The translations under genes and the position numbers were made by a program. Positions 4,493-28,000 of a stretch of DNA of 64,000 nucleotides are shown here, in pieces. Within the stretch, counting starts at the first letter, position 1. Each line of letters starts with the position of its first letter. Source of the stretch: a virus (taxonomy: Duplodnaviria; Caudoviricetes); IMG/VR virus record IMGVR_UViG_3300020471_000006, positions 32,001 through 96,000 of that record; one strand, given 5' to 3'. A model generated the notes under the pieces. That model did no database searches. It was given only the letters and a program-made list of their open reading frames with translations, and was not told the origin of the DNA.

Positions 4493-5175
4493 TGTGCCAT
4501 TGCTACTGATTCTTGTGTTCCATAACCTCTCACAACTCTACGTGCTTTGATTTTATCGTAGAAGTTTTCATTAGTTTCATTCCACACCTCTTCCTTTCTG
4601 AAATTAAATTCAGATGCTTTCCGAGTAATAACAAAATCTTCTATTGGAAGTAGGATTGCTGTATCCCATTCTTCTGCATGAAGATCTAATAATAGACCAT
4701 CTATATTAGACTTAAGATATTTATGGAAGCAAGCCTTAGGTAAGTTGATTCTACCTCTCTGCAAGTCTCTTATAGCAAGTATCCTTTTCTTAGGTGTCAT
4801 ATAGTGTAGGTTAGCCCCAAAGAATTCTTTTGGATCTGATTTAATCACATAAACAAGCGGAAATTTGTCCCAATATGGTAGATATTTGGACTGTGCTTTG
4901 TATTCGAAGAGGAACATGTGACCTTGCACTGCATACCTTCTCAATACATTTCCATCTTGTTGATCTTCAGAGTCAAGAGAATCATATCTCTCATCTCTAA
5001 CAAATTTTTTATGATCTTCTTTGAATCTATTTACTTCTTTACGCACAGCATTTTTATACCATGTGTACGTTTTCTTTTCACCACCAGTTAATGTTGTTAT
5101 TTTTTCAAATATAGTTTCATATCCACTATCGTTTTTTACAGCAGATCGCTGTATGTCTCCAAATCCTTGTGCCAT
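4489..5175 (-). CDS. gp2: T4-like DNA end protector gp2
   Basis: MFLFEYKA, YWDKFPLVYV, GANLHY and CFHKYL motifs; synteny with gp4/gp48. Confidence 0.85.
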   Translation of the reverse strand: MAQGFGDIQRSAVKNDSGYETIFEKITTLTGGEKKTYTWYKNAVRKEVNRFKEDHKKFVRDERYDSLDSEDQQDGNVLRRYAVQGHMFLFEYKAQSKYLPYWDKFPLVYVIKSDPKEFFGANLHYMTPKKRILAIRDLQRGRINLPKACFHKYLKSNIDGLLLDLHAEEWDTAILLPIEDFVITRKASEFNFRKEEVWNETNENFYDKIKARRVVRGYGTQESVAMAQ

Positions 5176-5187
5176 TGTTCATATCTC

Positions 5188-5622
5188 CTACACTCCTAGG
5201 TTATCTTCAGTTAATATTAGAAAACCCATCTGCCTATCTCCACACCAGTCTTCGGCAGCATCCCATTTAGCACGGTTCTTTGCAAATGTTAGAGCAGCTC
5301 TCTTGTAGGCAGATGTTCTTTTATCTTTACCATAAGGGGGTTTTGTTTGTTTCTTTGGTTTTATTTCTATGATGTACTTACCATACGTTCCATCTTTCTT
5401 CTTTACTTTAATATAAAAATCAGGATAGTACCTGTGTGGTTTACCATCTAGAGGTGAACGGTATGGTATGATGACCTCTTCGCTACCCCATTCTATTATA
5501 GAGGTAGTTCTATCACAAAACTTCATAAAATGAAGTTCCCACGATGATCGGTAAACGATTGTAGTGGGATTACCTTTGTACTTTTTAGGGTTCTTAGGTT
5601 TATACAATCCAGTTTTAGCCAT
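5188..5622 (-). CDS. gp4: T4-like head completion nuclease gp4 (TnsA-like)
   Basis: True start probably ATG 5622 (MAKTGLYKPKNPKKYKGNP); YRSSWE, WGSEE, RYYPDF and IEIKP motifs. Confidence 0.88.
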   Translation of the reverse strand: MAKTGLYKPKNPKKYKGNPTTIVYRSSWELHFMKFCDRTTSIIEWGSEEVIIPYRSPLDGKPHRYYPDFYIKVKKKDGTYGKYIIEIKPKKQTKPPYGKDKRTSAYKRAALTFAKNRAKWDAAEDWCGDRQMGFLILTEDNLGV

Positions 5623-5671
5623 ATATAATATAGATCTCACGTTTTTATTTAGTGTGAATATTTCAAAAGTA

Positions 5672-6295
5672 ATGGCGAAAGTAGGTGCTAAGGGAGGAAT
5701 GTCCCTTACTACTTCGTATCGAATTAAATTTGCTAGAGCAGGTGGCACTAATGATGCGATCACAATGATGTGTGATGAAGCACAGTTACCTAACGTACAA
5801 GCTGCTACTGCACAGATGGCAGGTAGGTATCTTGGTGAAGGTCCGTTTCAGTATCCACACACTAGATTGTTTACTGATGTGTCTCTAGGATTCCTATGTG
5901 ATGCAGAGTTAACGCAGTTAAAGTATTTTCAAGTTTGGTATGATGAAATATTTGGTGCTAATAATCAACATTTTATAAAGGATGAGGCAACAGTTGAACA
6001 GATGCATGGTCAAGGAACACCTAATAGATTCAGAACAAATAGATTAAATTATCCAGCAAATTATACTGCTACCACATATATCACAAAGGTTGAACAAAGA
6101 GCAACAGATGTACCATCGATTACATATATGCTCGAAGGTTCTTATCCTTATGCTATTGATGCTGTTCCCTTGTCATATGGGTCATCTCAAATCACTAGAG
6201 TGAATGTTAATTTCCATTATGTTAGACACTCAATGATTTATAGCAATGGAATGGGTGGACTCACAGGAGCAGAGACACAGGTCTTTAACGACTGA
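5672..6295 (+). CDS. Tail-tube-fold baseplate protein (gp54/gp19-like)
   Basis: ATG 5672 divergent from gp4; CDEAQLP, YPYAIDAVPLSYG and VNVNFHY tube-fold motifs. Confidence 0.75.
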   Translation: MAKVGAKGGMSLTTSYRIKFARAGGTNDAITMMCDEAQLPNVQAATAQMAGRYLGEGPFQYPHTRLFTDVSLGFLCDAELTQLKYFQVWYDEIFGANNQHFIKDEATVEQMHGQGTPNRFRTNRLNYPANYTATTYITKVEQRATDVPSITYMLEGSYPYAIDAVPLSYGSSQITRVNVNFHYVRHSMIYSNGMGGLTGAETQVFND

Positions 6296-6367
6296 TATAT
6301 ACCAGCAAATTCGGATTTTCAATTCCATGAAATCGGGAAAAAAATCTCCGCACATTTTTCTCTGAAA

Positions 6368-6393
6368 AAGTCGTATATATAAATATACGACTT
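6368..6393 (+). promoter_or_regulatory. T4-type late promoter TATAAATA (6378-6385) inside a perfect inverted repeat
   Basis: AAGTCGTATAT-ataa-ATATACGACTT; 20 nt upstream of the gp26 ATG. Confidence 0.75.
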
Positions 6394-6405
6394 GAATTAG
6401 TTTTT

Positions 6406-7119
6406 ATGGCATTACCGAAAGTTGGGTATCCCACCTACGAATTAGAATTACCTTCAAATGGCAAAACAGTCAAATATCGACCATTTTTGGTAAAAGAAGA
6501 AAAAGTACTTTTGCTGGCTTTAGAGTCAGAAGACGAAAAACAGGTTACATCTGCTGTTAAGGATTTAATCAAAAATTGCGTTCTTTCAAGAATTAAGGTA
6601 GAAACACTACCATTGTTTGATTTGGAATATCTGTTTTTGAGGATTCGTGGTGCTTCTATTGGAGAAACCATTACTTTGACTGTAACTTGTCTTGATGATA
6701 ATAAGACAAAAGCAGAAGCACATATCAATATTGATGATATTAAGGTTTTTAAGCCAGAAGGTCATTCTAACAAAATTGCGTTAACTGACGAAATGGGTAT
6801 TGTTATGAAATATCCAAGTATGCAGAGATTCATCGAATTAGACTTTTTACAGAAAGAATTGAATACTGAGGAAGTTTTTGAATTAATCGCAGAAAGTATA
6901 GATCAGATATATGATGGTGAAGACGTATTTGACTCAACTACCACTACAAAGAAGGAATTCCGCACATTTGTAGATACTTTGACTACTAAACAATTTGAGT
7001 CAATTCAACAATTTTATCAAACTTCGCCTAAATTGAGTCATACCTTCACAGTGGTAAACCCTAATACTGGAGTGGATTCGGAATATACAATTGAGGGTCT
7101 ACAGAGTTTTTTCGCATAG
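6406..7119 (+). CDS. gp26: T4-like baseplate hub assembly protein gp26
   Basis: MALPK..PTYELELPS, YRPFLVKEEKVLLLA, FDLEYLFLRIRGASIGE and C-terminal EGLQSFF. Confidence 0.88.
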   Translation: MALPKVGYPTYELELPSNGKTVKYRPFLVKEEKVLLLALESEDEKQVTSAVKDLIKNCVLSRIKVETLPLFDLEYLFLRIRGASIGETITLTVTCLDDNKTKAEAHINIDDIKVFKPEGHSNKIALTDEMGIVMKYPSMQRFIELDFLQKELNTEEVFELIAESIDQIYDGEDVFDSTTTTKKEFRTFVDTLTTKQFESIQQFYQTSPKLSHTFTVVNPNTGVDSEYTIEGLQSFFA

Positions 7120-7145
7120 CACTCTTCCACAATAGTTTGGAAGGG
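7107..7145 (+). other. Candidate -1 programmed ribosomal frameshift signal
   Basis: T TTT TTC heptamer (7107-7113) in the gp26 frame, 8-nt spacer, stem CTCTTCCA (7122-7129)/TGGAAGGG (7138-7145). Confidence 0.65.
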
Positions 7146-7154
7146 TACTATAGA

Positions 7155-7301
7155 ATGAATTTTGCTCTGATGCAGTACCATAAATACAGTTTGACGGAAG
7201 TAGAAAATTGGATGCCTTGGGAACGTGAAGTTTATGTAGCGTTTTTGATGCAATATTTAGAAGAAGTCAAACAAAAGCAACAACAAGCACAGAATGGCTA
7301 G
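7155..7301 (+). CDS. gp51: gp51-like C-terminal module, missed by the ORF track; the -1 frame is open from 7107
   Basis: MNFALMQYHKYSLTEVENWMPWEREVYVAFLMQYLEE resembles the C-terminus of T4 gp51; stop overlaps the next ATG (7294). Confidence 0.75.
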   Translation: MNFALMQYHKYSLTEVENWMPWEREVYVAFLMQYLEEVKQKQQQAQNG

Positions 7302-10300
7302 GTACTCTTCAACATATAGTGGTGATATGACCTCCTTTATCGGGGGTAAGATTGCTAGTGCTGCTGGTATGGCAAGAGATGAGGCAGACGCACAAGAGAA
7401 AGATAAACAAGCTGGTCTGAATGTTGCAAATAGTGGTAATTTATTCATTAAAGCATTAGGAAGTGAATTTGGTGGAGATTTATTTGCTAGGACAATAGGT
7501 GTTTTTAATCCAAAGCAATCTGCTGCACAAACTGATAGAGCTTCTAGTAAAGCAAAAAGATTTGCTGCAAATTTTCCCAGAACAGAAAAGAAGGAAGACC
7601 AAGACATAAAAAAGTCTAGTAGAGAAGTTGATCGTGCTAAGGATGAACTTTTAAGAGATGATGATCACATACCAGTAAAAGACGAAAAACTAAGGGATTA
7701 TGTCACTCGTGTCTTTGGTGTTGGTATAGATTCAAAATTAACACAAGTAGATGCTAGAGTATCTAAGGGTTTAGGTGTATTATCTGATATAAGACAATCA
7801 CATGAGACTAATATCAATCTCATGGTTGATCATAATGAGTTAATTGCAAGTAAACTTGATAAAATATTGGAATTGTATAGTGAACAATATCAATATCAGA
7901 AAGGGTTAAAAGATAAAGCAGAAGCAAGTAGGACGGAGAATGAGTTAGAAAGGAGAAAGGATTTATCGATAACTAGACGTTATGGTGCTCTTGATCCAAT
8001 GGGAGGAATGGGTGGAATGCTTTTTGGTGGGTTAACTGATAACCTTGTCAAAAGGTTAGTAAAACGTTTACTCGATAAGGCTAGAAAATCTAAACTTTTA
8101 ACTAAATCCCAAGCTAGTCTACTAGAGACAATTTTAACAAAATCATCTACTAGAGCAGCTACTGGTGCAACTGCAACTGCTGTTTTAAGAAAAGCAAGGA
8201 AAGATCTAGCATTAGAGTTTGCAACAGAACTAGCAGCAGAACGAGCTAGGACAAAGGCAATTGGTGAAAGTTTCTCAGCAGTAACTAGAAGTTCTGGAGC
8301 ACTAGACTCATTAGCATTAAAACCTAAAAAAGCAGTAAAAACTACTGCTCAAAATGCACTTAGGAAACTTAGTATAAAAGAATTAACACCGTTCCTTACG
8401 AAAGACTTTTTGGAAATGTTTCCAGGATCAACTCCATTAGATATGTTACAATCTATGGAAGGATTTTTGAAAATGGGTGGAGATTTTGGAGGTGGATCTG
8501 CTGGTGCTGATACAGTTATTAGACCTTTTAAGGAATCTGCTGTTGCAATGACTCAGAGTAGTAATCCAAAAATTGCAGATGCAGGTAGGGCTCTAATTAA
8601 TGAAATCCAACAGTTTGCTCCAGGTGCGATTTCTCTTGATGATTTAGTTATGGGTGCTGATGCTCTTAGAGTAAGTAAACCAGCTACTGAAGTATTAGGA
8701 GCTGGAACTCCTAAAATGGCGAAGGCATTATCAGGTTCTGTTGCTCAAACAGCAGGTAAGAAAATAGCAACTAAAACAGGTGCAAAAGCATTAGCAAAGA
8801 CTGGTAAGTTTGTACCTGGAGTTGGTACAATGATAGCTCTTGGAGAGGCAGGTTATAGATTGGGTGCAGGTGATACTACTGGTGCAATTTTAAGTTTATT
8901 GAGTGCTATACCTATTTTAGGATGGGGTGTTACTGCTCTTGATATTGGTAGAGATTTTGGATTCAATCCACTTGGGTTGCCACCTCCACCAGATCAAACC
9001 ATAAGTGCAGATCAGAGTAATCTTGGTGGTTATTATGAAGCTGGTACTTCTATGTTGACCGAACCAGGAGTTAAAGTACTACATGGTGATGAGAAAGTTC
9101 TTGGTGTGGATCCTGGAACTGGTATGACAACAGATCATATTCAAAATATTGGTGACAGCATAGTATCTGCTAGTGCTAAAATGGCACAGGATCTTGCTGT
9201 CAGTAGGGATGTCGCTAATTCAATTTCAAGTCTACCTTTTACTGTAAAGAGAGTAAATTATAGTAGTGGTATAAAGACTGGTCCAGTAAAATCTAGAAGT
9301 GATACACAAAGTATATTTGATGTACAAAGTGATATCAGTCAGTTTAAGAAAGAAGCTGAAACTGCTGTTGAAGATCCTAGAGAAGAGAAGGCTAATGAGG
9401 CGTTAGATCGAGAAGAAAAGCAAAATAGTCGTTGGTTCACTGACCCTAGAAGGCATCTTAATTTTGGTAATGGTGGTAATAGTTCTATATTATCAAATAG
9501 TCCTCTTTTAGCACAACAAGGAGATACAACTATACAATTTCATGGCAAACAAGGTAGAGATTTGTCTGGAGAACCAGGTGTTGATTTTAGTTATGGTGAT
9601 TATAGAAATAATTACAGTTTATTCGATGGTACAGTTATAGAAACAGGATTATTATATGGTAAAAATTATGGTAACGTAGTAGTAGTTAGAAGTACTGATC
9701 CTAGTTGCGGTAAGCAATTTGATGCTTTGTATGCACACTTCCCTGATGGTGGAATTTATGTTAAACCAGGAGATCGTGTGACAGGTGGTGCTATTCTTGG
9801 TAAGGTTGGGTTTGTGAGTGTAAGTAAGCCTGGAGTTCCAGAACTACAACCAAATAATGCTGGTAACATGTCAGGATGGCATACCAGTGTTGATTTCTTT
9901 GAACCTGATAGTGCTACACGTTATGCTAATGCAGATAAAATAATTAATTTAATTTTATCTTCTAATGGATTAAAACCTAATAATCTTCTACAAAAATTAG
10001 CAATTACACAAGTTGAGGCAATAGTTCCTAATTCAACAGATAGTATTGTTGAATATTATACTGGTGATCAGTCTCATCCAAATTGGGAACCATATTTACA
10101 TGATGGAGGAAACGAGCATGAACATTATGGATTTTCTTCTAAAGAAGAAAGGGATCGTGCAATGGCAATCCTAAGACAACATGGACTTATAGTTGATCCT
10201 GGTGGTGAACCTGGTGATCATACAGAAGGATCATTACATTATGAAGACAGAGCACTTGATGTTCAGTTTGGTCCTCATATGATAAGAGATGAACATCCAT

Positions 10301-10747: not shown

Positions 10748-13108
10748 ATGGCGAGGTATAGTAGCACAGTTAGTGGAGATTTAACTTCATTTGTACTAGG
10801 GAATCTAATAGATGCTGCTAGTATGGGTAAGGTTGAGAAAGCTCGTGCTCTGAGAGGTGGAGAGATTTCTGGAATGAAACCAGAAGATCTGATGCTCCGT
10901 CCTGGTGAATTTACTGCTCAAGCATTGAAATATAAGATGACTCCTAGATGGGCAAGGAGTCGTAGTTTTGGTAATAGATATCCAGATTATTTTGCTAAAA
11001 ATTTAAAGGGACAGAGTACACCATTTGCTAGTCCTATAAATCCAGAACCAACATTTGCTTCCATAAAGGAAAAGATGGTAGGGAATCCATTTCCTTACAT
11101 TGCAGCTCCATACAGAGAGCATCAAGTACAACCACAGACACCATTACTATCATCTGGTACTAAGAGGTATGAAAGTACTGTTTCAGAGAAGGAGAAACCT
11201 GTAGAGGTCAAGGATGAAAAACTTGGTGTATTCTTTGCTGCTATTGCAGAATCTTTAAACAGGACAGTATCTTCTATTGGTCAGAAACAGAGTCAGATTG
11301 AAGGTGAGATCTCTAGTGCTCAACAATCCAATCTTGCTATTGCTTCTGCATTAGAATATAGTAATGATCATATAGGATCTAAGTTAGATGCTATTGCTGA
11401 ACTATTAAATCAGCAAATGCAACTTGCTAAACAACAAGTTGATCAGTCAGAAACTGATGCTTCTGTCAAAGAATTTAGAGAGGAGGATGATCTCTCTGGT
11501 ACTGAGAGGTATGTTGATGTTGGAGAAAAGACTGAACCAATCAGACGTGCTAATGAGTTAGAGAATAATCTTGATGTTGATAATGATGAAATAGAAGACT
11601 TTGAGAAGGGTGGTATAGCAAGTGGTCCTGATAGCGGATACTTAGCTAGATTACACGGTGATGAACTGATTGTTCCATTAGATAATAATTACACACAGGG
11701 TCAACCAAGTGCTGTTGATGGAAAAGTTCGTAGTGTACCACAATACGAGACAGGTACTGGTGGTTTAACTCCGAAGACTCTTCCAATACCACAAACTCCA
11801 CCAACATCATCTCCATCATTCAATTTCTTTGCAAAGAATCAGTCAGAGCATGCAGGGACACCTAATGTATTGAATCTTCCTAAGACTGACACTAACGTTG
11901 CTGGTGAAGATTTAATGAAGGCTATGAAGTTACCGTTTGAGGTTGCTTCTTTGGGTATAATGCAAGCTACTGGTAATGCTGTCAGATCAATGCCAGGATT
12001 TAGTGAAATGAAAGGAACTGTTAGTTCTGTTATCAGTCCTGTTGCTCAAGCATTTAGTATTAAAGATACCATTAGTGGTAAAGTTAATAATTTATTAGAA
12101 AGTAAGTCACAACAGACTGAACGTAGGAATACTGAGATATACAAGAGAGAACAGAGTGAGAACAGACGTGCATGGTGGGATATATTTGGACTGTTTAGAG
12201 GTGGCGGTGGTGGTGATCGTTATGGTATTGGAGGTCCAGGTCTAAGTGGTGCTTCTAATCTACAGAACTTATATCATGGAACCAGTAATGCTAGAGCAGC
12301 TAAGATATTCTCTGGTGGATTTAAACCTAGCAATGCTCTGAGTTGGGCTGGTAGAGGTAAGTCATTCCTAACACCAGATTTCTGGAATGCTGCTCAGTAT
12401 GCTAGACCTGGTGCTACTGGTTTGAATCCTTTCAGTGTTAAGGGTCTTCCTAACACTGGTTTTGGTAATATGATGGGTAATAGAGGTCAGGTATTAAATG
12501 TACTACAACCTAGAGGTGCTGGTCTTAGATTGCCTGGTTGGTTGAAGGGTTTAGGTTTATCACCAGAGGTTGCTGTTAAACCTAACCAAGCAACTAAAGG
12601 AATGAATCTAGCTCAGAGATTATTGAGTGGTAAATATCCTAATAGTCCAACTGCTAATATGGTTAGAGGAATGATGACATCACCAGCAGGAGGTAGGGGT
12701 CTTGGTATGATGAGTAAGTTGTCACCATTCCTTCAGGGTGGTATGAGACTTGGATCAAAAGCACTTGGTATTGCAAGTTTCCTTACTGATTTTATATTCC
12801 CAGATCCAACTGCTCAATATGATCAGATGCATGGTCCAAATGCATACTATAATGATCCTAGATTTACTGGTGAGAGACCAGAGTGGGCTCCTCCATTATC
12901 CAGTAACAAAGCAGATATTGTTGACTTAGGATCTAAAGAACATGCTATGAGTAAATTTGGTAAGAAAGATATTGATCCAGCAATGATTACCCTTAATAGT
13001 ATGAATAATGCCAATTATAATCAGCCAAATGAATCAATATCTCATATTGATAATATGGGTGACTCTCAGGTCGATCAATACCAATTCGTTTATTCAGCAT
13101 TTAAGTAA
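10748..13108 (+). CDS. Tape-measure/gp29-like protein 2 (paralogue) with ADP-ribosyltransferase-like domain
   Basis: N-terminus MARYSSTVSGDLTSF nearly equals MARYSSTYSGDMTSF of protein 1; LYHGTS...GFKPS...AAQYA...EVAV. Confidence 0.65.
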   Translation: MARYSSTVSGDLTSFVLGNLIDAASMGKVEKARALRGGEISGMKPEDLMLRPGEFTAQALKYKMTPRWARSRSFGNRYPDYFAKNLKGQSTPFASPINPEPTFASIKEKMVGNPFPYIAAPYREHQVQPQTPLLSSGTKRYESTVSEKEKPVEVKDEKLGVFFAAIAESLNRTVSSIGQKQSQIEGEISSAQQSNLAIASALEYSNDHIGSKLDAIAELLNQQMQLAKQQVDQSETDASVKEFREEDDLSGTERYVDVGEKTEPIRRANELENNLDVDNDEIEDFEKGGIASGPDSGYLARLHGDELIVPLDNNYTQGQPSAVDGKVRSVPQYETGTGGLTPKTLPIPQTPPTSSPSFNFFAKNQSEHAGTPNVLNLPKTDTNVAGEDLMKAMKLPFEVASLGIMQATGNAVRSMPGFSEMKGTVSSVISPVAQAFSIKDTISGKVNNLLESKSQQTERRNTEIYKREQSENRRAWWDIFGLFRGGGGGDRYGIGGPGLSGASNLQNLYHGTSNARAAKIFSGGFKPSNALSWAGRGKSFLTPDFWNAAQYARPGATGLNPFSVKGLPNTGFGNMMGNRGQVLNVLQPRGAGLRLPGWLKGLGLSPEVAVKPNQATKGMNLAQRLLSGKYPNSPTANMVRGMMTSPAGGRGLGMMSKLSPFLQGGMRLGSKALGIASFLTDFIFPDPTAQYDQMHGPNAYYNDPRFTGERPEWAPPLSSNKADIVDLGSKEHAMSKFGKKDIDPAMITLNSMNNANYNQPNESISHIDNMGDSQVDQYQFVYSAFK

Positions 13109-14538
13109 TGAAAGCAGAAGATTTTACAATAAAAACTATTGAAATTAGAAGAGTTGGTGAAGACCATGCAATAGAACCTTATGCTATCTTAACTGATGTT
13201 GTTCTTGGATTTCAATATTACGAGGATATAACTACACCATCAATATCTGCTACGTTATTCATATCTGATAAGGCAGCAAATCTCCCTGCTTCTATGCCTA
13301 TACAAGGATTTGAGTTGGTTACTATGGAACTCACTGATAGGAATGGTAAAGATCATCAGTATGAGTTTCGTGTATGGAAAGTTGGTAATAGAGTTTCTAC
13401 AGAAAAAGGTCAAGGATATATTTTAGGTTTGATAAGTACAGCAGGATTAATTAATGAGGGCGTTAAAGTAAATGCACTATTGAAAGGTACAGCAAATACA
13501 ATAGTCAAAAAAGTATTACAAGATTATCTTAATATACCTGAAGCTAAGGTTAGGAGTGATGAAGCAACTAACATAATGAAGATATTCCCTGCTGGTAAGT
13601 CTCCATTTGCGGTTATTAGAGATTTGCAAGCTAAAGCGATTTCTAAAGATTCATTTGCTGCTAGTGGTAATAGTGCTACATCATCTATAGACATTGATGC
13701 TAGTGATTCAGTTACTGCAAGTTCTGATACAGCAGAAGATACTAAACAACTTAAGGGTAGTGCTGGATATTTCTTTTGGGAAACCGTAGATGGATTTAAT
13801 TTTAAAAGTATAGATTCAATGGCATCAAAAGATCCAAAGAAATTTGGTGGTAGTGAGCCTGTTGCAACATATGAATTTGCTCCAGCAATGATAGAACAAA
13901 CAGAAGCAATGGATCCATACAAGATACAAGAAGTCACCTTTGTATCTGAATTGGATATATTGAAAAAATTAAGAGAGGGTGCATACTCTGCCGAATGTAC
14001 GTTTTTCGACATAAATACTGGTGTTCTTACGGAGTATACCTATAAATTAAGTGAAAACTGGGACAAAATGGGTCATCTAGGTACTGCAACAAAGTTACCT
14101 TGGGGTCAAGAACAATTATCCCAGTATCCAACTAGACGATTATCCTCTGTCATTAACCACGAATTGTGGCATAATGGCACTGAAATTGCGTCAAATGAGT
14201 CTGAGGCAGATAGTGATGAACCAAGTGAAGTTACCGATAACCAGAAGCAATTTCTGGTACAATCTATAGCACGTGCTGGTTCATTGTTCAACCAGCGATT
14301 GATGATTTCGATTCCAGGTAACTTAGATCTCAGAGCAGGTCAAAAGATCACAGTTATGATACCAAACCAAATACCTGAAAAGGACAGGGAAGATCAAGGG
14401 GATTTCGACCCCGAACATAGCGGTGTGTATTTGATCAAAAAACTCAATCATCAATTTGACAGAATGAAGATGAGCGTTTATACTGTATTGGAACTTATTC
14501 GTGACTGTTATGGTTACGAAGACACAGCCACTAAGTAA
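13108..14538 (+). CDS. Baseplate hub protein (gp27-like)
   Basis: FQYYEDITTPSISATLFISD, GYFFWET.DGFNFKSID, IPGNLDLRAGQ.I and SGVYLI motifs; lies between tape measure and gp5. Confidence 0.75.
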   Translation: MKAEDFTIKTIEIRRVGEDHAIEPYAILTDVVLGFQYYEDITTPSISATLFISDKAANLPASMPIQGFELVTMELTDRNGKDHQYEFRVWKVGNRVSTEKGQGYILGLISTAGLINEGVKVNALLKGTANTIVKKVLQDYLNIPEAKVRSDEATNIMKIFPAGKSPFAVIRDLQAKAISKDSFAASGNSATSSIDIDASDSVTASSDTAEDTKQLKGSAGYFFWETVDGFNFKSIDSMASKDPKKFGGSEPVATYEFAPAMIEQTEAMDPYKIQEVTFVSELDILKKLREGAYSAECTFFDINTGVLTEYTYKLSENWDKMGHLGTATKLPWGQEQLSQYPTRRLSSVINHELWHNGTEIASNESEADSDEPSEVTDNQKQFLVQSIARAGSLFNQRLMISIPGNLDLRAGQKITVMIPNQIPEKDREDQGDFDPEHSGVYLIKKLNHQFDRMKMSVYTVLELIRDCYGYEDTATK

Positions 14539-14781: not shown

Positions 14782-17622
14782 ATGGAAGGACTTAATCAAT
14801 TATATCCAATTCACCAAATTGGATCCGACGGGTTCGCCTGGTGGATCGGACAGGTTGAGTCGCCTATGCATTCTCAGGACGGCGAAGAGAATAAAGATCA
14901 GAAACGTTCTGGAAGATATAAAGTCAGGATTATAGGACATCATCCTAGATCATGTAATGCAGTAAAGAGTTCGGATTTACCATGGGCAATCACTATGATG
15001 CCTGTGACTACTCCGTATTCATCTGGTGCTGTGCGTTCAGCAACGCCACAGTTGGAGCCAGGTGATTGGGTTATAGGGTTCTTTTTAGACAAAGAACAGC
15101 AGCAACCTGTTATCATGGGATCTATTGGACAGGTCGCTAATTCTGGAACACCACCAGGAGAAGATCCTAATCCTGGAGAAGGTTGTAAGAGTCTTACAAC
15201 ATTTGTTGATGAAAATAAGAGACAACTAGATCAAGAAGTAAATGAAGTTGTTGAGTTTAGTGTTACTGATGCAGGTGTACCTTTAGATGGTACTAAATCT
15301 GAGGGAATTACTGATGGTGTTAATAATCTAACCATAGCAAAGTTTGCTGATGCATCGGAATCTAATAGAGCAGGTATCAACTTTACAGTTGAAGTTGCTG
15401 ATAAGTGTCCTGAGTTGCAGGGAAAGTTTAAACGTCTCTTAAGTGAGATGCTTCGTGATACTCAACAGAGTAATGGTCAGTTAGGAACATATGTTGTTAA
15501 CCAGTGGACTGGTCAGATTACTGACTATGTTGATATTGGTAGAAAATATGTAAATAAAGCTGTACTTATTATCAAGAAATTCATTGCTAAAGTTAAGGGA
15601 TTTGTATTAGAGAAGATTAAGAGAGTAGTTGATGATATTGTTAAAGCAATTCTATCACCAAGTGAAACTGGTAATAGATTGACTCCAGTGACAAAGTGGT
15701 TCAATAATATGTTATCAGATCTTGGATGTTCTATGGCAGATCTGGGATTGCGTTTAGAGAAGTTCTTAGAGGATCTTATCTTTGGTTATTTGTTTGATAT
15801 CTACAAAGCTGCTGCATGTCAAGTAGACAAGATGGTTAGTGGTATCCTTAATAAGATTCAGTCTTTGATGGAAGATTTACTATCCAGTATTCTTGGTCCT
15901 CTACAAGCTTTACTTGGTGCTATAGCATCACCACTCAATATGATTGGTGAAGCAATCAATTATGTATTGAATCTACTTGGTATCAAGTGTACTGGACCTG
16001 ACAGCAGATGTAATAAGGTCACTTCTGTAACTACTAAGTGTGAAACAGATAAGCGAGAGAATTTCTTAGACAGATTACTAGAAAGTCTACAAGATCCGTG
16101 GGACGGTGCTGGTGAGGATTGGGCTACCTATACATGTGAAGAAGCATATGAAGGTGTTAAGTTAAAGAACACTGAGGTTACATTTGTTGGTGGTAGACAA
16201 AAGACAGATGGATTGGAAGATAGGATAACATATAATATTAGTGACATACGTGTTAAGGAAGGTGATATAGCAAAGTTTGAAGTTATTAGAACTGGCAAGA
16301 CTGATATTGCTTCTAGTGTTTTCTGGAGAACTATAGAAGGTACGGCAGAGTATGTGACTGATTTTGAAGAAGGAAGTGGGACAGTAGGATTCTCTATAGG
16401 AGAAACGAAAAAGTTTATTGAAGTGAGAACACTTTATTCTGATGAGATAGAAGGTTCGGAAGATTTCTTTGTGTCATTGAGACCAGGAACTCCTGGTGTA
16501 GTCACTAGGTCATTTATCAGTAGTCTTGCTAGATGTGTTATTAACAAATCTAATATAGGATCTAGTTCAGATCCAAATGTAGATCTAGATGACACACCAC
16601 CTACTCCATCAAGGAATGCAAATGATCCTAATAATTTTGAATTTGGAGAAGTATTTGAATCACTAGCGAATGATAATGATAGTGATACTGTAGAGTCAAC
16701 ACCAGATGGACCAACTTATGCAGTGGAACCTAATAAGAGTTCTGTTGAAGAAGGTGAGTTTGTAACATATACTATAAAAACTACCAATGTTGATAGTGGT
16801 ACTGTATTGCAGTATCAATTATTTGGAGAGGGCATCACTAATTCTGATATTGTTGGTGGTCAGTTGAAAGGTCAGTGTGTTATTGAAGATAATAAATCCT
16901 TAGTTGTGGTTGGTATTGAAGATGATGCTACTATAGAAGGTGATGAGAGACTTATATTTGCTATAAATGGTACAGATGCTAGTGCTACTGTTCTTATTCA
17001 ATCTCAGTTAACAGATTTTGGTAGAGAAGATTTATTGAAAGAGTTAGATCAGTCTGAAGATATTGATAAGACCAATGTTTATACAAAAGCTACTAAACCA
17101 ACAGCAGGAGCACCTATAACAGATCCAAGTGGAGGTATCATACAAGTTCCTATAGAGAATCCTGGTACTGCATACACAGAACCACCTGCTGTCCTTATAA
17201 CAGGTCAAGGGTATGGTGCTGTTGGAATTGCTTTACTTGATAAAAATAGTCAGGTTTCAGAGATTAGGGTGACAAATCCTGGATTTGGGTATAAACTTAA
17301 TGCACCACAGACAGAGCAGAAACGTTGTATTATTGATAGTTTTACAATGTTAACACCTGGCACAGGATATACCAGTGCTCCTAGAGTCTATATTGATGGA
17401 GACTCAGATGTAGCAGAAGCTGTAGTTGAGAGGGGTATGGTTGTTAGTGTCAGAATTAAAAATAGAGAGAAGACATTCACTGAATATCCACGAGTCCAGA
17501 TCATTGGTGGTGGTGGGTATGGTGCAAGGTGGTTACCATCATTCAATTGCTTAAGTACCGAAGCACTTGTTAAAGTTGGATCTGCTAAGATTGGTACTGG
17601 TTCCTATATTGATTGTCCGTAA
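14782..17622 (+). CDS. gp5: gp5-like baseplate hub/spike, N-terminal part (OB fold, helical region, Calx-beta-like domain); no lysozyme motif seen
   Basis: FAWWIGQVE, GRYKVRIIGHH, LPWA, WVIGFFLD..QQPVIMGSIG; YNISDIRVKEGDIAKFEV..TG..ASSV.WRT.EGTA...DF. Confidence 0.8.
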   Translation: MEGLNQLYPIHQIGSDGFAWWIGQVESPMHSQDGEENKDQKRSGRYKVRIIGHHPRSCNAVKSSDLPWAITMMPVTTPYSSGAVRSATPQLEPGDWVIGFFLDKEQQQPVIMGSIGQVANSGTPPGEDPNPGEGCKSLTTFVDENKRQLDQEVNEVVEFSVTDAGVPLDGTKSEGITDGVNNLTIAKFADASESNRAGINFTVEVADKCPELQGKFKRLLSEMLRDTQQSNGQLGTYVVNQWTGQITDYVDIGRKYVNKAVLIIKKFIAKVKGFVLEKIKRVVDDIVKAILSPSETGNRLTPVTKWFNNMLSDLGCSMADLGLRLEKFLEDLIFGYLFDIYKAAACQVDKMVSGILNKIQSLMEDLLSSILGPLQALLGAIASPLNMIGEAINYVLNLLGIKCTGPDSRCNKVTSVTTKCETDKRENFLDRLLESLQDPWDGAGEDWATYTCEEAYEGVKLKNTEVTFVGGRQKTDGLEDRITYNISDIRVKEGDIAKFEVIRTGKTDIASSVFWRTIEGTAEYVTDFEEGSGTVGFSIGETKKFIEVRTLYSDEIEGSEDFFVSLRPGTPGVVTRSFISSLARCVINKSNIGSSSDPNVDLDDTPPTPSRNANDPNNFEFGEVFESLANDNDSDTVESTPDGPTYAVEPNKSSVEEGEFVTYTIKTTNVDSGTVLQYQLFGEGITNSDIVGGQLKGQCVIEDNKSLVVVGIEDDATIEGDERLIFAINGTDASATVLIQSQLTDFGREDLLKELDQSEDIDKTNVYTKATKPTAGAPITDPSGGIIQVPIENPGTAYTEPPAVLITGQGYGAVGIALLDKNSQVSEIRVTNPGFGYKLNAPQTEQKRCIIDSFTMLTPGTGYTSAPRVYIDGDSDVAEAVVERGMVVSVRIKNREKTFTEYPRVQIIGGGGYGARWLPSFNCLSTEALVKVGSAKIGTGSYIDCP

Positions 17623-22070: not shown

Positions 22071-25000
22071 ATGGCATTGACAAGACTTGACAATCTTATT
22101 AGTTCTAAAACTGGTAAGTATTTGTACGTCTCACCTGACGATTTTAACGCAACGGATGAGATTAATAATAGAGGTAACTCCCCTATTAGACCGTTTAAAT
22201 CGATTCAGAGGGCATTTTTAGAGATTTCACGATTCTCTTATCAACCTGGTCCTGATAACGACAGGTTTGATCAATTCACCGTCATGGTGATGCCTGGTAA
22301 ACATTATGTTGATAATAGACCTGGTCTTGCTACTACTGACGGAATTGATGCTTTTGCGTTTGATCAAGCACTTAATCAATGGATTGATAATTCCAATTTA
22401 GACATTGGAGATCCTAATAACTGTCTGTACAAGTTTAATAACACTGAGGGTGGAGCCATAATCCCTCGTGGTTCATCTATTATTGGTTATGATTTACGTA
22501 GAACATCAGTTCATCCACTGTTTGTTCCCGATCCTGCTGACAGGTTAGAAGCTCGCTCTGCTATATTCAATGTTACTGGTGGTTGTTATTTCTGGCAGTT
22601 CACTATTAGAGATGGTGACCTAGAGCCTGCGTCACCATTATATGACAATTCAGAAGGAATTGGTAAAGTTTATTATCAAAATGGTGATTGGACTGCAAAA
22701 GCTGTACCAAACTTCTCTCACCACAAACTGACTGTTTTTGAGTATGCAGACAAAGAAGAATTAGGTCTGTACTACCAGAAAGTTGCTAAAGCATTTTCAC
22801 AATATCAACCAACAATTGATGATCCTCGTGAATTCGGTGATAGAATCGAAGAGACTAGAATTGTTGGTCCTCTATCAGACATTCGTTCTGTTGAGAGTAT
22901 TAAACTTACAGATTCAGCACCTGCTGGAACAATAACAGTTGAAGTAACATCCAAAGTTAATCATGGATACTTCAGGAACCAATTTGTTGCTATTGAGAAC
23001 AATGGTCTAGATGATCAGCTCAATGGTGTGTTCTCTATTTCTGAGATTGATTTAGTTGATCAACGTAAGTTCTCATATAATATACCAGGAACTGTTGGTG
23101 CTCTTGGAACTAGTGCATCTTTGATAAGTGGCACAACTTATACTGCATCAAATGGTTTAGATTCTAATGCTGTAGTTAAGGCAGAGGTTGACTCTGTTGA
23201 ATCTGCATCTCCATACGTCTTTAACTGCTCCATCCGTTCAACATGGGGTATTTGTGGTATCTGGGCAAATGGTTTGAAAACCACTGGTTTCAAATCAATG
23301 GTTATCGCTCAGTATACTGGTGTATCTCTACAGAAAGACGATAGAGCATTCATCAGATATGATGAGTACAGTAACACATTTAATCAAGCATCACTATCAG
23401 ATGCATTTGCTACTGTTCCATATCATACTAAAGGTGATGCATACTGGAAGGATGACTGGAGAAACTTCCACGTTCGTGCATCAGAAGACGCATTCATTCA
23501 GTGTGTTAGTATCTTCGCTGTTGGTTTCGCTGATCACTTCCTAATGGAAAGTGGTGGTGATATGAGTATCACCAACTCTAACAGTAACTTTGGTAATACA
23601 TCACTACATGCTATTGGTCATAAAGGATTTGCCTTTACACAGGATAAAGGTGGATATATTACAGATATTGTTCCTCCACAGGTTGTAGATACAACTACTG
23701 GAAATATCAAGAAGAATGCTTACTATACTATTGATATTCCAGCTACCAAAAATCTTAACAGTGCATCAGACCAGACTAAGATCTATCTTGGAGACGATGA
23801 AGCATTTAATCCAGAGACACGTGTTGCTGCATCTATTGATGGATTCCGTATAGGTGCTAGGTCAGATGAAAAGTTATATGTAAAATTAATTCCTAGATCT
23901 GCTGGAAGTAGTAATATTTTCGAGGCAACATTATCTCCTAATGGATTTAAGAAGTTTAATGCTACTGCAACTATTCTTAATCCTACTGGTATTACAATTA
24001 ACAATAAGGATCTAGATGCTGCTGACCTTATTGAAGCAAACAAAGAGTTTATTGCTTACGAGGCATACGGATATATTACTAATAAGTATCCATACCTCTT
24101 AGATAGAGAAGGTATTGATATTGTCAAGTGTCGTCGTGACATTGGATATTTGCTTGATGCTACTATTCAGGATTTAAGACTTGGTGGTAACATTAATACT
24201 ATTCAAGCTGGTGAATCATACTATGTTGGTAATAACTTATCATACATTACATCAGAACTTACTGAAACTCTAGAAGGTTACGACTACGCTAGAGATCTTG
24301 CTATTGCATCTATACGTAATTTCACATATCTACGTACTGGATCAGAGACAACTGCTGGATCTGCTATTGTTGATGTCGGTGACACAAGTGGTATCGTTCA
24401 AGGTATGACTGTTGCTGACTATGATCCTACTCAGTTTACAGACAACAAACTTAATTCTGGTGCTTCACGTCCTGCATCTCCAGTTATTCCTGATAACACA
24501 TATGTTAAGAGTGTTATCTCATCAACAGAGATTGAACTTGGACAGAAAGCAACATTCTCTAGTAAGAAGGTAATCTCTGATCGTAATGGTGACGCTAGAA
24601 ACCTATTACTTTCAAACAAACTATTCATTGCTGCTGAAGCATTTGATAGGATGGTATTGGATTTCCCATCTTATACTTCACCAACAGGATACGGTCCACA
24701 GGATTGTAGGGATGACTTAGTTGACATCGTTGAAGCAATTGCTGAGAATACTGCTTATGGTGGTAACGATGAAGTATGGGATGCTGCATATCATTATGAT
24801 AGTGGTGCAGTTCAGTATATTTCACAGAAGAAAGAAGAGACCATTCGTGCGATTGAATATGCCAGAGATATGTCTGTGCAGATCATGCGTAATGAGAAGT
24901 CATTCATCTTTGGTAGTCATGGTCTAACTCAAACATATGATAATACTGTCACTTATGAACCACCTGAAGTGGTTAATGACAGAAATGGTGACGCACGTAA

Positions 25001-28000
25001 TCTAATACTTGCTAACAAGCATTTGATTGCTGCTGAATCTGTAGAGAGAATGTTGGTTCGTTCTTCTACTGCTGAGTATACACCAACTGATGCTGAGTAT
25101 GATCCAGCAACAGGTGATTTGACTCTTGATGTTCAGAGTCATGGATTAACTGCTGCTAGTGCTATTACAGCTTCAGATGCAAATTATAATCCTGAAACTG
25201 GTTGGTTGACTATTACATCTAATGGTCATGGTTTAGCTGCTGGTAGTAAGGTTAAGATTGAAGATGAATCATTGACATTGACATGTTCAATGGATGGTGA
25301 TGCTTCTACTCATGTATATCCTAGACCATCTGATCCTATTAGTAATAAGTGGGTTGAAGTTGCTGAGGCAGACACAAATACATTCAGTATTGATGTAGGT
25401 AAGTCTCTATTAATTGGACATAATGTAACTGCTGCTGAATATGTTCCTGCTACTGGATTGTTAACTGCAACTATTCCAGGTCACCAGTTAAGTGAAGGGC
25501 AGAATGTAAGAGTTGAAGACGGAGCATTTACATTTACATGTGCTCAAGATAACTATGGCACACAACATGTTTATCCACGTTCAACTGATCCAGCATATCA
25601 AAGTTCTGTTAAGATTGTAGCAGATGGTTCCAAGCACACAGTTACTGGTGCTGGATACAACCCTGATAAGGGTACTATGGAATTCACCCTTACAAATCAT
25701 GGATTTAGTAATGGTGATAAGATAAGAATTGATGATAATGCATTAGTCTTTACTTGTGCAATGGATGCTAATGCTACTGAGCATTCATATCCACGTAAGT
25801 CTGACCCTATTAGTGGTAAGTGGGTTACTATTACAAACAAAACTAACAATACTTTTGAAGCACATGTTGGAACTACTGGTGCGGTAACATATGATCTTAC
25901 TAACGCACTTTATGATCCTGCAAGTGGTGAGTTAACAGTTAGTGTTGATGGAAACCATGACATTGATGTTGGTGAGAATATTAGATTTGCTGATAATGCA
26001 TTAACATTTACATGTGGTATGGATGGAAATAGTTCTAACCACACATATCCTCGTACAACTGACCCTGCGTATAATACTGGGTTAGAAGTTATAGGTGTTG
26101 GTGGTAACTATGATATTTCTAATGCTAACTACAACCCATCTACAGGTGTACTTGAGTTCACTGTTGCTAATCATGGATTGACAAATGGAGAACTCATTAA
26201 GATTGCCAACAACTCTCTAACATTCACATGTGGCATGGATAATAATGCTTCCGAGCATAAGTATCCACGTGCAACTGATCCTTATTCTGGTGATTGGTTA
26301 TCTGTCTATGATGTAGCACAGAATTCATTTAAAGTTCAGATTGCAGATGCTGGATCTAACGTAGAGTTTACACCAACTGATGCTTCTTATGACCCTGCAA
26401 CTGGTGACTTAGAACTTACTGTTGGTGCTCATAATCTATCTGTTGGTGATGGAATCGTCATGGATGACGGTGCTGTATCCTTCACTTGCACAATGGACAA
26501 CAACCAAGTTGCTCAGTCATATCCACGTGCAAACTTAGATAAAGCTTCTGGAAGATCTCTTCCAATTACCTCAGTTGATACAGGTAAGTTTACAATTAAT
26601 GTAGGTGCTGCTGGTTCTAATAAGAACTTAACTCCTACTGGTGCAACATACAATCAGAACAATGGTGAGATGGTTCTTACTGTTGGTCAGCATGGATTGC
26701 GTGTTGGTACTGATATTACATTAAAAGATAACTCATTAACATTCACTTGTGATAAAGATGGTGGTGCTACTCAGCATTCATATCCTAGACCTGGTACTGA
26801 CCCTTATGCTGGTAAGTCAATTGCTATTACAGCAGTTGGTTCTTCACAACATACAGCAACTAATGTTGCATACACACCTTCTAGTGGTGTTATGGTTGTT
26901 ACTGTTCCTAGTCATGGATTCTCACCAGGAGATTACATTCAGGTAGCAGATAATTCTATTACATTAACATGTGATTTAGATGGTAACGTAAGTCAGAAGA
27001 CATATCCACGTACTAACTTTGATTCACTAAGCAACAGGTGGGTTCCTATCCTATCAGCAAGCACTGATACCTTTACTATTAATGTTGGTTCTTCTACTGA
27101 TAATTCAGTACACACATTTGTATCTGCTTCTGCTAATGGTATCTTAAAGCAAGACGGAACACTAACAATTAATGTTGGTTTCGATGCTGATCCTGCTAAC
27201 AGATATGCTCACACATTTGTATCTGCTCTTACCGATGCTGTAGAATATAAGCCTCAGTCAGCACATACATTCGTATCTGCATTAACAAATTCAGTTAAGC
27301 ATCTACCACAGTCTGCTCATACATTTAAGAGAGCAGCTAACTATGCTATCTCCAAGAGAGGTGGTGACATCACAGTTAATGTTGGTAAGTCTCCTATTGT
27401 AGAGTTCACACCAACTAATGCTACCTATGATCCTAACACAGGATTGATGGAATTAACTATAGGTAGTCACAGTTTAACTGCTGGCACAAGTGTTAAGGTT
27501 GATCCTAATTCTCTCAAGTTTACTTGTGAGATGGATGGAAACTATAGTGTCAAGTCTTATCCTCGTGCTACTGACCCTGTAAATGATACTTCTATTGAAA
27601 TTACAGCAGCGTCAGCTACAACTATTACTATTAATGTTGGTCAATCTCCAATAGTAAGTCACAATGTTGATGATGGTTCATACAACCCTGCAACAGGTGA
27701 GATGACCTTGAAGATTGGAAACCATAGTCTAACTGTTGGTGAGTCAATCAAGATTGCTGATGGTGGTGTAACATTCAGTTGTACTTATGGTAATGTTCCA
27801 CATACCTTTATAACTGGTGCTGCTGGTGGTATTACTGCTGATGGTAGCACAGCATTGACAGCAGCTTCTGGAACAACATACGATCCTATCACAGGTGAAT
27901 TGGTTCTTGAAGTTGGAGCACATGCTTTGAATGCTGCTTCTACACATACAGTAACAGACGCAACATATAATGCTGCAACTGGTGCTATGGTTGTTACCAT

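Follow-up and report, generated by a model that had tools for sequence, protein, structure and literature searches.

A highly divergent ADP-ribosyltransferase-like domain in a putative tail-hub protein of a T4-like cyanomyovirus and its relatives in four subtypes

The window analysed here, a stretch of 64,000 nucleotides (positions 32,001 to 96,000 of the IMG/VR record IMGVR_UViG_3300020471_000006), is part of the 202.5-kb record of a T4-like cyanomyovirus, with the Synechococcus phages S-CAM3 and S-CAM1 as the closest isolated relatives of its genome. The subject is P0002, a 786-amino-acid hub or tape-measure-like protein encoded at 10748..13108 on the + strand according to the list of open reading frames (ORFs) and their translation, and an ADP-ribosyltransferase (ART)-like domain which this protein carries towards its C-terminus. 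An earlier note on this DNA, made from the letters alone, had read such a domain at 12260-12600, where the ORF 10748-13108 is the sole one of at least 60 amino acids on either strand; upon translation the quoted ART-like peptide was present and the codons for the His at 12275 and the Glu at 12566 proved correct. Amino acids ~503-625 of P0002 very probably constitute a minimal, highly divergent ART-fold domain homologous to the ARTs of the H-Y-E clade, and the assignment of this clade, which includes PARPs, diphtheria toxin (DT) and exotoxin A (ExoA), as the nearest one is well supported.

The features of the window described in the following all lie on the + strand. The domain is preceded by a Gly-rich linker (12197..12253) ending in a nearly invariant G-L-S in all four subtypes of the wider family, designated A to D, with this phage belonging to subtype A. 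The ART-fold core, amino acids 503-625 (12254..12622), as delimited by the AlphaFold model, structure searches, hhalign and profile matches in the PDB, is composed in this order of a strand (YHGT), a helix, a loop, a strand (SFLT), a helix (..AAQY), an insertion, a strand (QVLNVLQP), a strand starting with Glu607 and a helix. On the first strand the H-G-[ST] motif is present as His510-Gly511-Thr512, aligned to the His of PARPs and ExoA and invariant in subtype A; His510-Gly511 (12275..12280, with the codons 12275-12277 and 12278-12280) is the equivalent of the catalytic His and the nicotinamide-binding Gly of PARPs and DT by HMMER and hhalign. Phe540 (12365..12367) occupies the column of the canonical tyrosine of the H-Y-E clade, being placed onto the Tyr of the G-V-Y motif by hhalign and under the Tyr of subtypes C and D by MAFFT, so that the earlier reading of the usual Tyr as a Phe agrees with the profile-profile alignment as well as with the Tyr in the sister subtypes. 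Tyr551 (12398..12400) corresponds to the second nicotinamide-stacking Tyr (DT Tyr65, PARP1 Tyr907) in hhalign and in the PDB profile alignment.

Between Tyr551 and the distal strands, the family alignment places a Gly/Pro-rich insertion of 28 residues (12404..12487) that is specific to subtype A, with 20 of the 28 positions invariant and a predicted local distance difference test (pLDDT) score below 50. Subtype B lacks the insertion, and C and D have mostly gaps in its place, positions 1-16 of the 28 being gapped in all three subtypes; the loop may serve to bind a partner or a target. Glu607 (12566..12568), at the start of its strand, is the presumed catalytic Glu by its conservation and by the range offsets of the structural alignments. 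His510, Gly511, Phe540, Tyr551 and Glu607 are invariant across the 19 full-length homologues of P0002, which are 61-96% identical and all stem from marine metagenomes. Two helices after the ART core (Q-A-T-K-G ... Y-P-N-S-P-T-A-N; 12581..12682) are kept in all four subtypes, and 3' of these helices lies the conserved motif F-P-D-P..Y-D-Q..G-P-N-A-Y-Y-N (12782..12853), which occurs also in S-PM2 p210, a protein lacking the ART domain. In the form F-P-D-P-T-x-Q-Y-D-Q..G-P-N-A-Y-Y-N, the motif recurs in proteins of the hub block in numerous T4-like phages of aquatic origin, some of them bearing the ART-like domain and others lacking it.

Neither the Pfam and NCBIfam scans of the whole P0002 protein nor a single-sequence phmmer search against the PDB gave a match. 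Two profiles were applied in addition, A2, built from close homologues, and A6, the 81-sequence family alignment spanning the four subtypes. When the domain alone was compared with Pfam, PARP was the only match, with His on His; equally, A2 had PARP14 as its only match in the PDB, at a sub-threshold E of 0.9 and again with His on His. Against 1.84 billion representative proteins A2 found 51 proteins at E<=1e-3, most of which are covered only in the helices after the ART core and the region beyond, and few in the half from His to Tyr. A2 reached P0028 (E 4.9e-11), a protein of four PARP repeats (Pfam PARP 4.7e-36), and the polyvalent-like P0068 (E 1.8e-4; Pfam PARP 1.8e-6), both of which are over the Pfam threshold; the value for P0028 is not relied on alone, because it sums four near-identical repeats of ~15 bits each. 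Alignment of A6 with the PARP repeats of P0028 by hhalign gave a probability of 97.3% over 47 columns, with His510 opposite His, Phe540 opposite the canonical Tyr and Tyr551 opposite the second Tyr. In the PDB, A6 had 24 matches at E<=10, and the best 23 of the 24 were PARP10/12/14/16 or ExoA-type ARTs, with PARP10 (E 0.005) and PE-like toxins (E 0.014) as the best and with the toxin alignment extending through the 'VYVP' strand. Scanned singly against Pfam, 15 of the 81 members showed sub-threshold PARP matches (best E 0.0068), and no other family recurred: ART-PolyVal was matched weakly by one of the 81, PTS_2-RNA by 0 of 81, and the exotoxin and diphtheria families showed no significant match among the 81 members. 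Megablast and tblastn searches against isolated phages gave no C-terminal match except for the FPDP motif of S-PM2.

With the 81-sequence alignment, AlphaFold predicted the core (model residues 8-60 and 83-150) with a pLDDT of 73-91 and a predicted template modelling score (pTM) of 0.62. The combination of AlphaFold and Foldseek, which the earlier note had proposed as a check, placed ART folds at the top of the lists, the top matches in the PDB (E 0.06-0.4) being DT, cholix toxin, ExoA, tankyrase, PARP14/4/16, KptA and TreTu. An exhaustive VIA-align search of 48,161 representative chains, independent of Foldseek, had a top 50 that consisted nearly entirely of ART folds, with Z scores of 6.5 for KptA, 6.3 for TreX, 6.0 for DT, 5.6 for chelona toxin, 5.5 for TNKS2 and for scabin and 5.3 for ExoA. 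The DT/exotoxin group ranged from 5.3 to 6.1, and re-alignment of the Foldseek candidates by VIA gave a Z of up to 6.7 (Tpt1), the lobes of Tpt1/KptA that bind nicotinamide adenine dinucleotide (NAD), DNA complexes included, reaching 6.5-6.7 over 83 residues at a root-mean-square deviation of 3.0; because the differences are below 1, such a ranking between ART families amounts to ties. R-S-E toxins appeared only lower down the VIA list, which holds also DarT and other toxin ARTs as well as the inactive PARP-like domains TASOR and PARP13. Among AFDB clusters, PARP, Gig2 and Tox-ART-HYD1 entries were found, and in BFVD phage PARP-like and ART entries, while a feature search of the ESM Atlas returned unnamed clusters only, with scores below 0.8. 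The best viral structural match was the BFVD entry A0A346FKN8, an uncharacterised protein of the cyanophage Synechococcus virus S-PRM1 (208 amino acids, E 0.03, TM 0.33), in which the ART-like fold may occur as a protein of its own.

Read from range offsets, model residue 15 (His510) falls on DT His21, ExoA His440, PARP1 His862 and PARP10 His887, and model residue 112, which is Glu607, falls on DT Glu148 and beside PARP1 Glu988, as taken from the ends of the alignment ranges and not from a residue-level superposition. The case for the fold is carried by the different libraries concurring with one another and with the register of the sequence alignments, and not by single scores. The PDB profile matches, hhalign and the structure searches together uphold the earlier placement of the domain nearest to the H-Y-E clade.

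Gly511 and Tyr551 are invariant in 81 of the 81 family sequences. At the columns of residues 510, 540, 551 and 607, subtype A, comprising this phage and its marine relatives, has His, Phe, Tyr and Glu, all at 100%. Subtype B, a short form which is ~30-35% identical to A, has the same residues at 95% (His), 86% (Phe), 100% (Tyr) and 95% (Glu), with Tyr at the Phe540 column in several members and the full H-Y-E set in some. Subtype C, from T4-like contigs, has His, Tyr, Tyr and Ala, and subtype D, the commonest with 46 IMG/VR loci, Thr, Tyr, Tyr and Gln, all at 100% within the respective subtype. Subtype D shows in addition an invariant E-P-Q, that is, a Glu (605) two residues before the Gln at the Glu607 column; it may represent a pseudo-enzyme or else an enzyme whose catalytic Glu has shifted. 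As subtypes C and D keep the module, the module can persist without the triad.

In the subtype B contig L033 (IMG/VR, 64.9 kb) the domain is part of a 1061-amino-acid protein (4747-7929) whose gene is flanked by those for the large terminase and an SU10-like portal; the same protein contains repeated G-G-R-x-G..G-E linkers and an internal twin-arginine-like signal at amino acids 793-813 (TAT_signal E 7e-4, sub-threshold). A C-type contig has the domain in the large hub protein that comes first after gp26, and in a D-type contig (L064:5970-8690) it follows an M23 peptidase within the same protein, while one D-type protein has an added GH19 domain. Wherever the module is part of a tail-hub protein, the two conserved helices and then the F-P-D-P..Y-D-Q..N-A-Y-Y-N motif come after the ART-like part.

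Within P0002 conservation is highest in the ART region, with a mean pairwise identity of 0.83-0.87 versus 0.58-0.71 elsewhere. The comparison with loci L003-L022 shows a mosaic block of amino acids ~500-720 (12245..12907) with raised nucleotide and third-position identity: among nine divergent relatives, nucleotide identity is ~0.8-0.96 over most of the block versus 0.53-0.78 in the N-terminal 400 amino acids, and synonymous divergence (dS) amounts to 0.22-0.31 within the block versus 0.60-0.79 outside. The ratio of nonsynonymous to synonymous divergence (dN/dS) of the ART region is 0.47. The block looks like a recently exchanged cassette or, alternatively, like the result of constraint at the nucleotide level. 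Conservation of the ART region as a consequence of enzyme selection alone was dropped as an explanation after dS there was found to be ~3x lower (0.22).

The P0002 gene is situated in the baseplate-hub block, with gp26/gp51 on one side and the gp27-like and gp5 genes on the other, and the block is in its position equal to the T4 genes 26-51-27-28-29. It starts with a gp26-type (T4) baseplate hub gene (6406..7119; PF12322 E 1e-71; phrog_150), which is followed by two large paralogues, the 1150-amino-acid P0003 (7294..10746), whose module is a Peptidase_M23 domain and not the ART-like one according to Pfam and BLASTP, and P0002 itself. Thereafter come a phrog_350 'tail protein' gene in the position of the gp27-like hub gene (13108..14538; PHROG match and synteny) and a gp5-type gene for baseplate hub and tail lysozyme (14782..17622; Gp5_OB domain; phrog_1922 E 3e-233). 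The same gene order is found in S-CAM3, S-PM2 and the IMG/VR T4-like contigs L043 and L064. P0002 and P0003 are related only over their first ~255 residues (29% identity, E 5e-15 by BLASTP), an N-terminal scaffold of amino acids 1-255 (10748..11512) which includes a coiled-coil-like stretch; the Peptidase_M23 domain of P0003 (amino acids 761-839) is barely over the Pfam threshold. Amino acids 161-505 of P0002 match phrog_10925 (E 3e-40).

The earlier description of the protein as a 'tape-measure paralogue' was partly borne out: paralogy to P0003, hub synteny and an N-terminal coil were seen, but the hhalign probability for T4 gp29 was only 8%. No tape-measure model in PHROG or Pfam matches P0002, and comparison of the phrog_350 protein with T4 gp27 by BLASTP was not significant. 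Because of the results for gp29 and gp27, the names 'tape measure' and 'gp27' are purely positional, and a role of P0002 as tape measure is read from two things, synteny and the N-terminal coil. A G-S-K-L-D..(I/L)..L-L..Q motif within this coil (11228-11440) occurs also in T4 gp29 (amino acids 68-123; L096:6879-8648), as a hint of kinship only. As its gene lies in the baseplate-hub block and adjoins an M23-bearing paralogue, P0002 is most likely a tail-lumen or hub protein which leaves the virion first at infection. In the genome neither a Macro domain nor a second copy of the ART-like domain was found. Further downstream, a single ORF of 6618 amino acids (22071-41927, +) probably encodes a giant virion protein.

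Paralogues and orthologues of P0002 carry cell-wall enzymes, namely M23, VanY plus DPBB, GH19 and an 'endolysin' PHROG; where P0002 has its ART domain, other cyanophages show a muralytic module or lack an ART. The S-CAM3 orthologue has phrog_10925 in common with P0002 and an 'endolysin' PHROG module (phrog_34252) in place of the ART domain, which is equally absent from the S-CAM3 paralogue. A lysozyme at the S-CAM3 C-terminus was rejected upon finding no Pfam or PDB support, leaving the phrog_34252 'endolysin' assignment. S-PM2 p210 (L049:5999-8245) combines an M23 peptidase with the FPDP motif. Since S-CAM3 and S-PM2 carry other modules, the swapping of this segment for other enzymes among relatives, which the earlier note had expected, is indeed seen.

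With PARP mono-ARTs (PARP10/14/16 and the fish Gig2-like proteins; PF00644) the domain has the strand-helix-loop-strand-helix NAD-binding unit in common, and the H-G-T, the G-x-G-x-[YF] and the second Tyr of PARPs, which are the best sequence-level matches in the PDB and Pfam and the best in AFDB clusters as well, align with it column for column. In contrast to PARPs, the P0002 domain comprises ~120 instead of ~200 residues, has a Phe for the first Tyr and an insertion of its own, the 28-residue loop, shows a reduction of the strands and donor/acceptor loops between the Tyr helix and the Glu strand, and is embedded in a phage hub protein without WWE, macro or regulatory domains. DT, ExoA and cholix toxin, the top Foldseek matches in the PDB, share the same pattern of Y-H-G-T, aromatic strand, ..A..Y-A, V-x-V-P-type strand and strand-initial Glu. 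Unlike these toxins, P0002 has no translocation or receptor domains, the spacing between His and Glu is much shorter when the insertion is disregarded, and nothing points to an eEF2-type target; cyanobacteria are not known to have the diphthamide target. The NAD+ lobe of Tpt1/KptA (H-H-h clade) is closest by Z and of similarly small size, whereas these enzymes possess H-H-h, an R-H-R-R tetrad and an RNA lobe, and P0002 has H-[FY]-E and no sequence-level match to them. Of the R-S-E clade of T4 Alt and VIP2, the Arg, the S-T-S motif and the [QE]-x-E are all absent.

The virion-packaged phage ARTs, that is T4 Alt, MuF-ART fusions and polyvalent proteins, exemplify the logic proposed here for P0002: late synthesis, transport within the particle and delivery as infection begins. 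To date, the phage ARTs on record are either packaged in the head or have genes close to those for packaging (PMC9503650; PMC7302621). Alt and the MuF fusions belong mostly to the R-S-E (Alt/VIP2) or an N4-like family and are all head-packaged, in contrast to the P0002 domain, which lies in a baseplate-hub/tail-lumen block; subtype B, encoded by the terminase and portal genes, resembles the virion-packaged ARTs, and the profile-matched P0068 is polyvalent-like. Enzyme modules of tail tape-measure and hub proteins (M23, lysozyme-like, VanY) present the same design of an N-terminal coil or scaffold and an exchangeable C-terminal module; they have periplasmic peptidoglycan targets and need no cofactor, whereas an ART would need cytoplasmic NAD+ and would be another kind of payload. 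The phage ART survey (PMC9503650) makes no mention of tape measure, baseplate or cyanophages, and no published tail-borne, tape-measure or cyanophage ART of the P0002 kind was found in the literature searches.

The phage may inject an NAD-using enzyme, the ART domain of P0002, through its tail, as the earlier note had suggested. For the proposal in full, an active ART in a hub or tail-lumen protein, delivered via the tail and acting on a host macromolecule or on NAD+, we consider the chances to be even. The NAD site would be made up of His510 and Gly511, Phe540 at the place of the canonical first Tyr, Tyr551 and Glu607. Upon contraction of the sheath the C-terminal part would be expelled before the DNA, and the ART domain, if it reached the cytoplasm, would bind NAD+ and ADP-ribosylate a host macromolecule or else hydrolyse NAD+. 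The outcome might be an aid to takeover or a counter-defence, as for head-packaged T4 Alt, through a different ART clade and by a different route; with these steps we infer tape-measure identity, virion location, translocation, catalysis and a target. In support of the proposal, His, Gly, Phe/Tyr, Tyr and Glu are retained between subtypes A and B despite only ~30-35% identity, and this retention is better evidence for catalysis than the invariance within a subtype. Equally, the location of subtype B by terminase and portal genes is the known context of virion-packaged ARTs (PMC9503650).

A number of observations weigh against this proposal. The Pfam PARP (PF00644) threshold is not reached by the domain alone (11.5 bits versus a gathering threshold of 26.7, E 0.21) and the first Tyr of the H-Y-[EDQ] clade is exchanged for Phe540, a conservative aromatic change; because of both, the domain is filed as a divergent new family near the H-Y-E clade and not as a member of the PARP/DT family. 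With close homologues only, the AlphaFold model had a pLDDT of 37, the predicted main strands number ~4, fewer than in canonical ARTs, and the structure scores are modest and under the safe range of the tool (Z <=6.7, Foldseek E >=0.009, TM ~0.3). The equivalence of Glu607 derives from range offsets because hhalign stops short of the Glu strand, and the invariance of the site within a subtype is weak evidence for catalysis because dS is low in the block; low dS accounts in part for the strong conservation of subtype A and speaks for recent exchange more than for selection on the protein. NAD+ is cytoplasmic, whereas domains at tape-measure ends are as a rule active in the periplasm, and for P0002 the homology to gp29 could not be demonstrated. 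Furthermore, the module is kept in subtype D with Thr for His and Gln for Glu and in subtype C with Ala for Glu, while the presence of the FPDP motif alone in S-PM2 and the fixed link of the module to the helices and this motif hint at a structural unit.

The last two points lead to a structural pseudo-enzyme, in which an old ART fold would now serve as a plug or assembly domain of a hub-lumen protein, for example in the gp27-like cup or touching the tube initiator, and the residues of the NAD site would be retained for their part in packing or in the binding of partners. The complete fixation of the replaced Glu, or His and Glu, within subtypes C and D, the abundance of D in IMG/VR and the tie of the module to the downstream helices and the motif found on its own in S-PM2 p210 are in line with such a role, as are the near-invariant Gly/Pro loop of subtype A, which fits a protein-protein interface, the predicted reduced ART fold and the inactive TASOR and PARP13 among the structural matches. 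We regard the pseudo-enzyme as less likely than the active ART, but as its main and a serious rival: the joint conservation of the site in A and B, with the full H-Y-E set in some B members, speaks against it, the hubs of S-CAM3 and S-PM2 are built without any ART domain, and subtype B, beside terminase and portal genes, lies outside any tail-hub context, a setting in which a hub plug makes no sense. PARPs of the H-Y-x type, which lack the Glu, are still active mono-ARTs, so that subtype C need not be dead.

Should the domain be active, its target might be other than a protein, such as nucleic-acid ends or phosphates in the manner of KptA/Tpt1 or DarT (host RNA or DNA, or the end of the incoming genome), or it might plainly degrade NAD+. 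The small Tpt1/KptA NAD lobes, with DNA complexes among them, are the best neighbours by Z and match the domain in size, and DarT and other toxin ARTs are in the structure lists; against this, the sequence matches are to PARP and ExoA families and never to Tpt1 or PTS_2-RNA, the pattern is H-[FY]-E and not the H-H-h of the KptA clade, and the N-terminal RNA-binding lobe is absent, all of which renders a non-protein target improbable. Mere chance similarity within a structural segment rich in Gly, with model and matches as artefacts, would account for the sub-threshold scores against single sequences and curated families, for Z values below 8, for the additive E value of the four P0028 repeats and for a good model that was obtained only upon mixing four subtypes in its alignment. 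We consider it very improbable, since independent methods (HMMER against the PDB with 23 of 24, hhalign, the VIA top 50, AFDB and BFVD) agree on one superfamily and one register and His, Gly, the aromatic residue, Tyr and Glu stand at the expected secondary-structure elements.

Returning to the active, tail-delivered ART, a wider proposal, for which we see slightly less than an even chance, is that aquatic T4-like phages possess an undescribed family of minimal PARP/DT-like ARTs in tail-hub proteins, which would be delivered through the tail before the DNA. Their rewired active sites (H-F-E, H-Y-A and T-Y-Q) would imply different chemistries or targets, and the cassette would be recombined among co-occurring cyanophages. 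The virion-borne phage ARTs known so far, T4 Alt, MuF fusions and polyvalent proteins, are head-packaged only. If true, a DT/PARP-like ART in the tail hub would be delivered by a route not seen before and would make up a new ART family, invisible to Pfam, in viruses that are among the ocean's most abundant; it would also provide a testable handle on the first seconds of host takeover by cyanophages or on anti-defence. Equally, the series of variants from H-F-E over H-Y-A to T-Y-Q helps to ask how ART folds become pseudo-enzymes.

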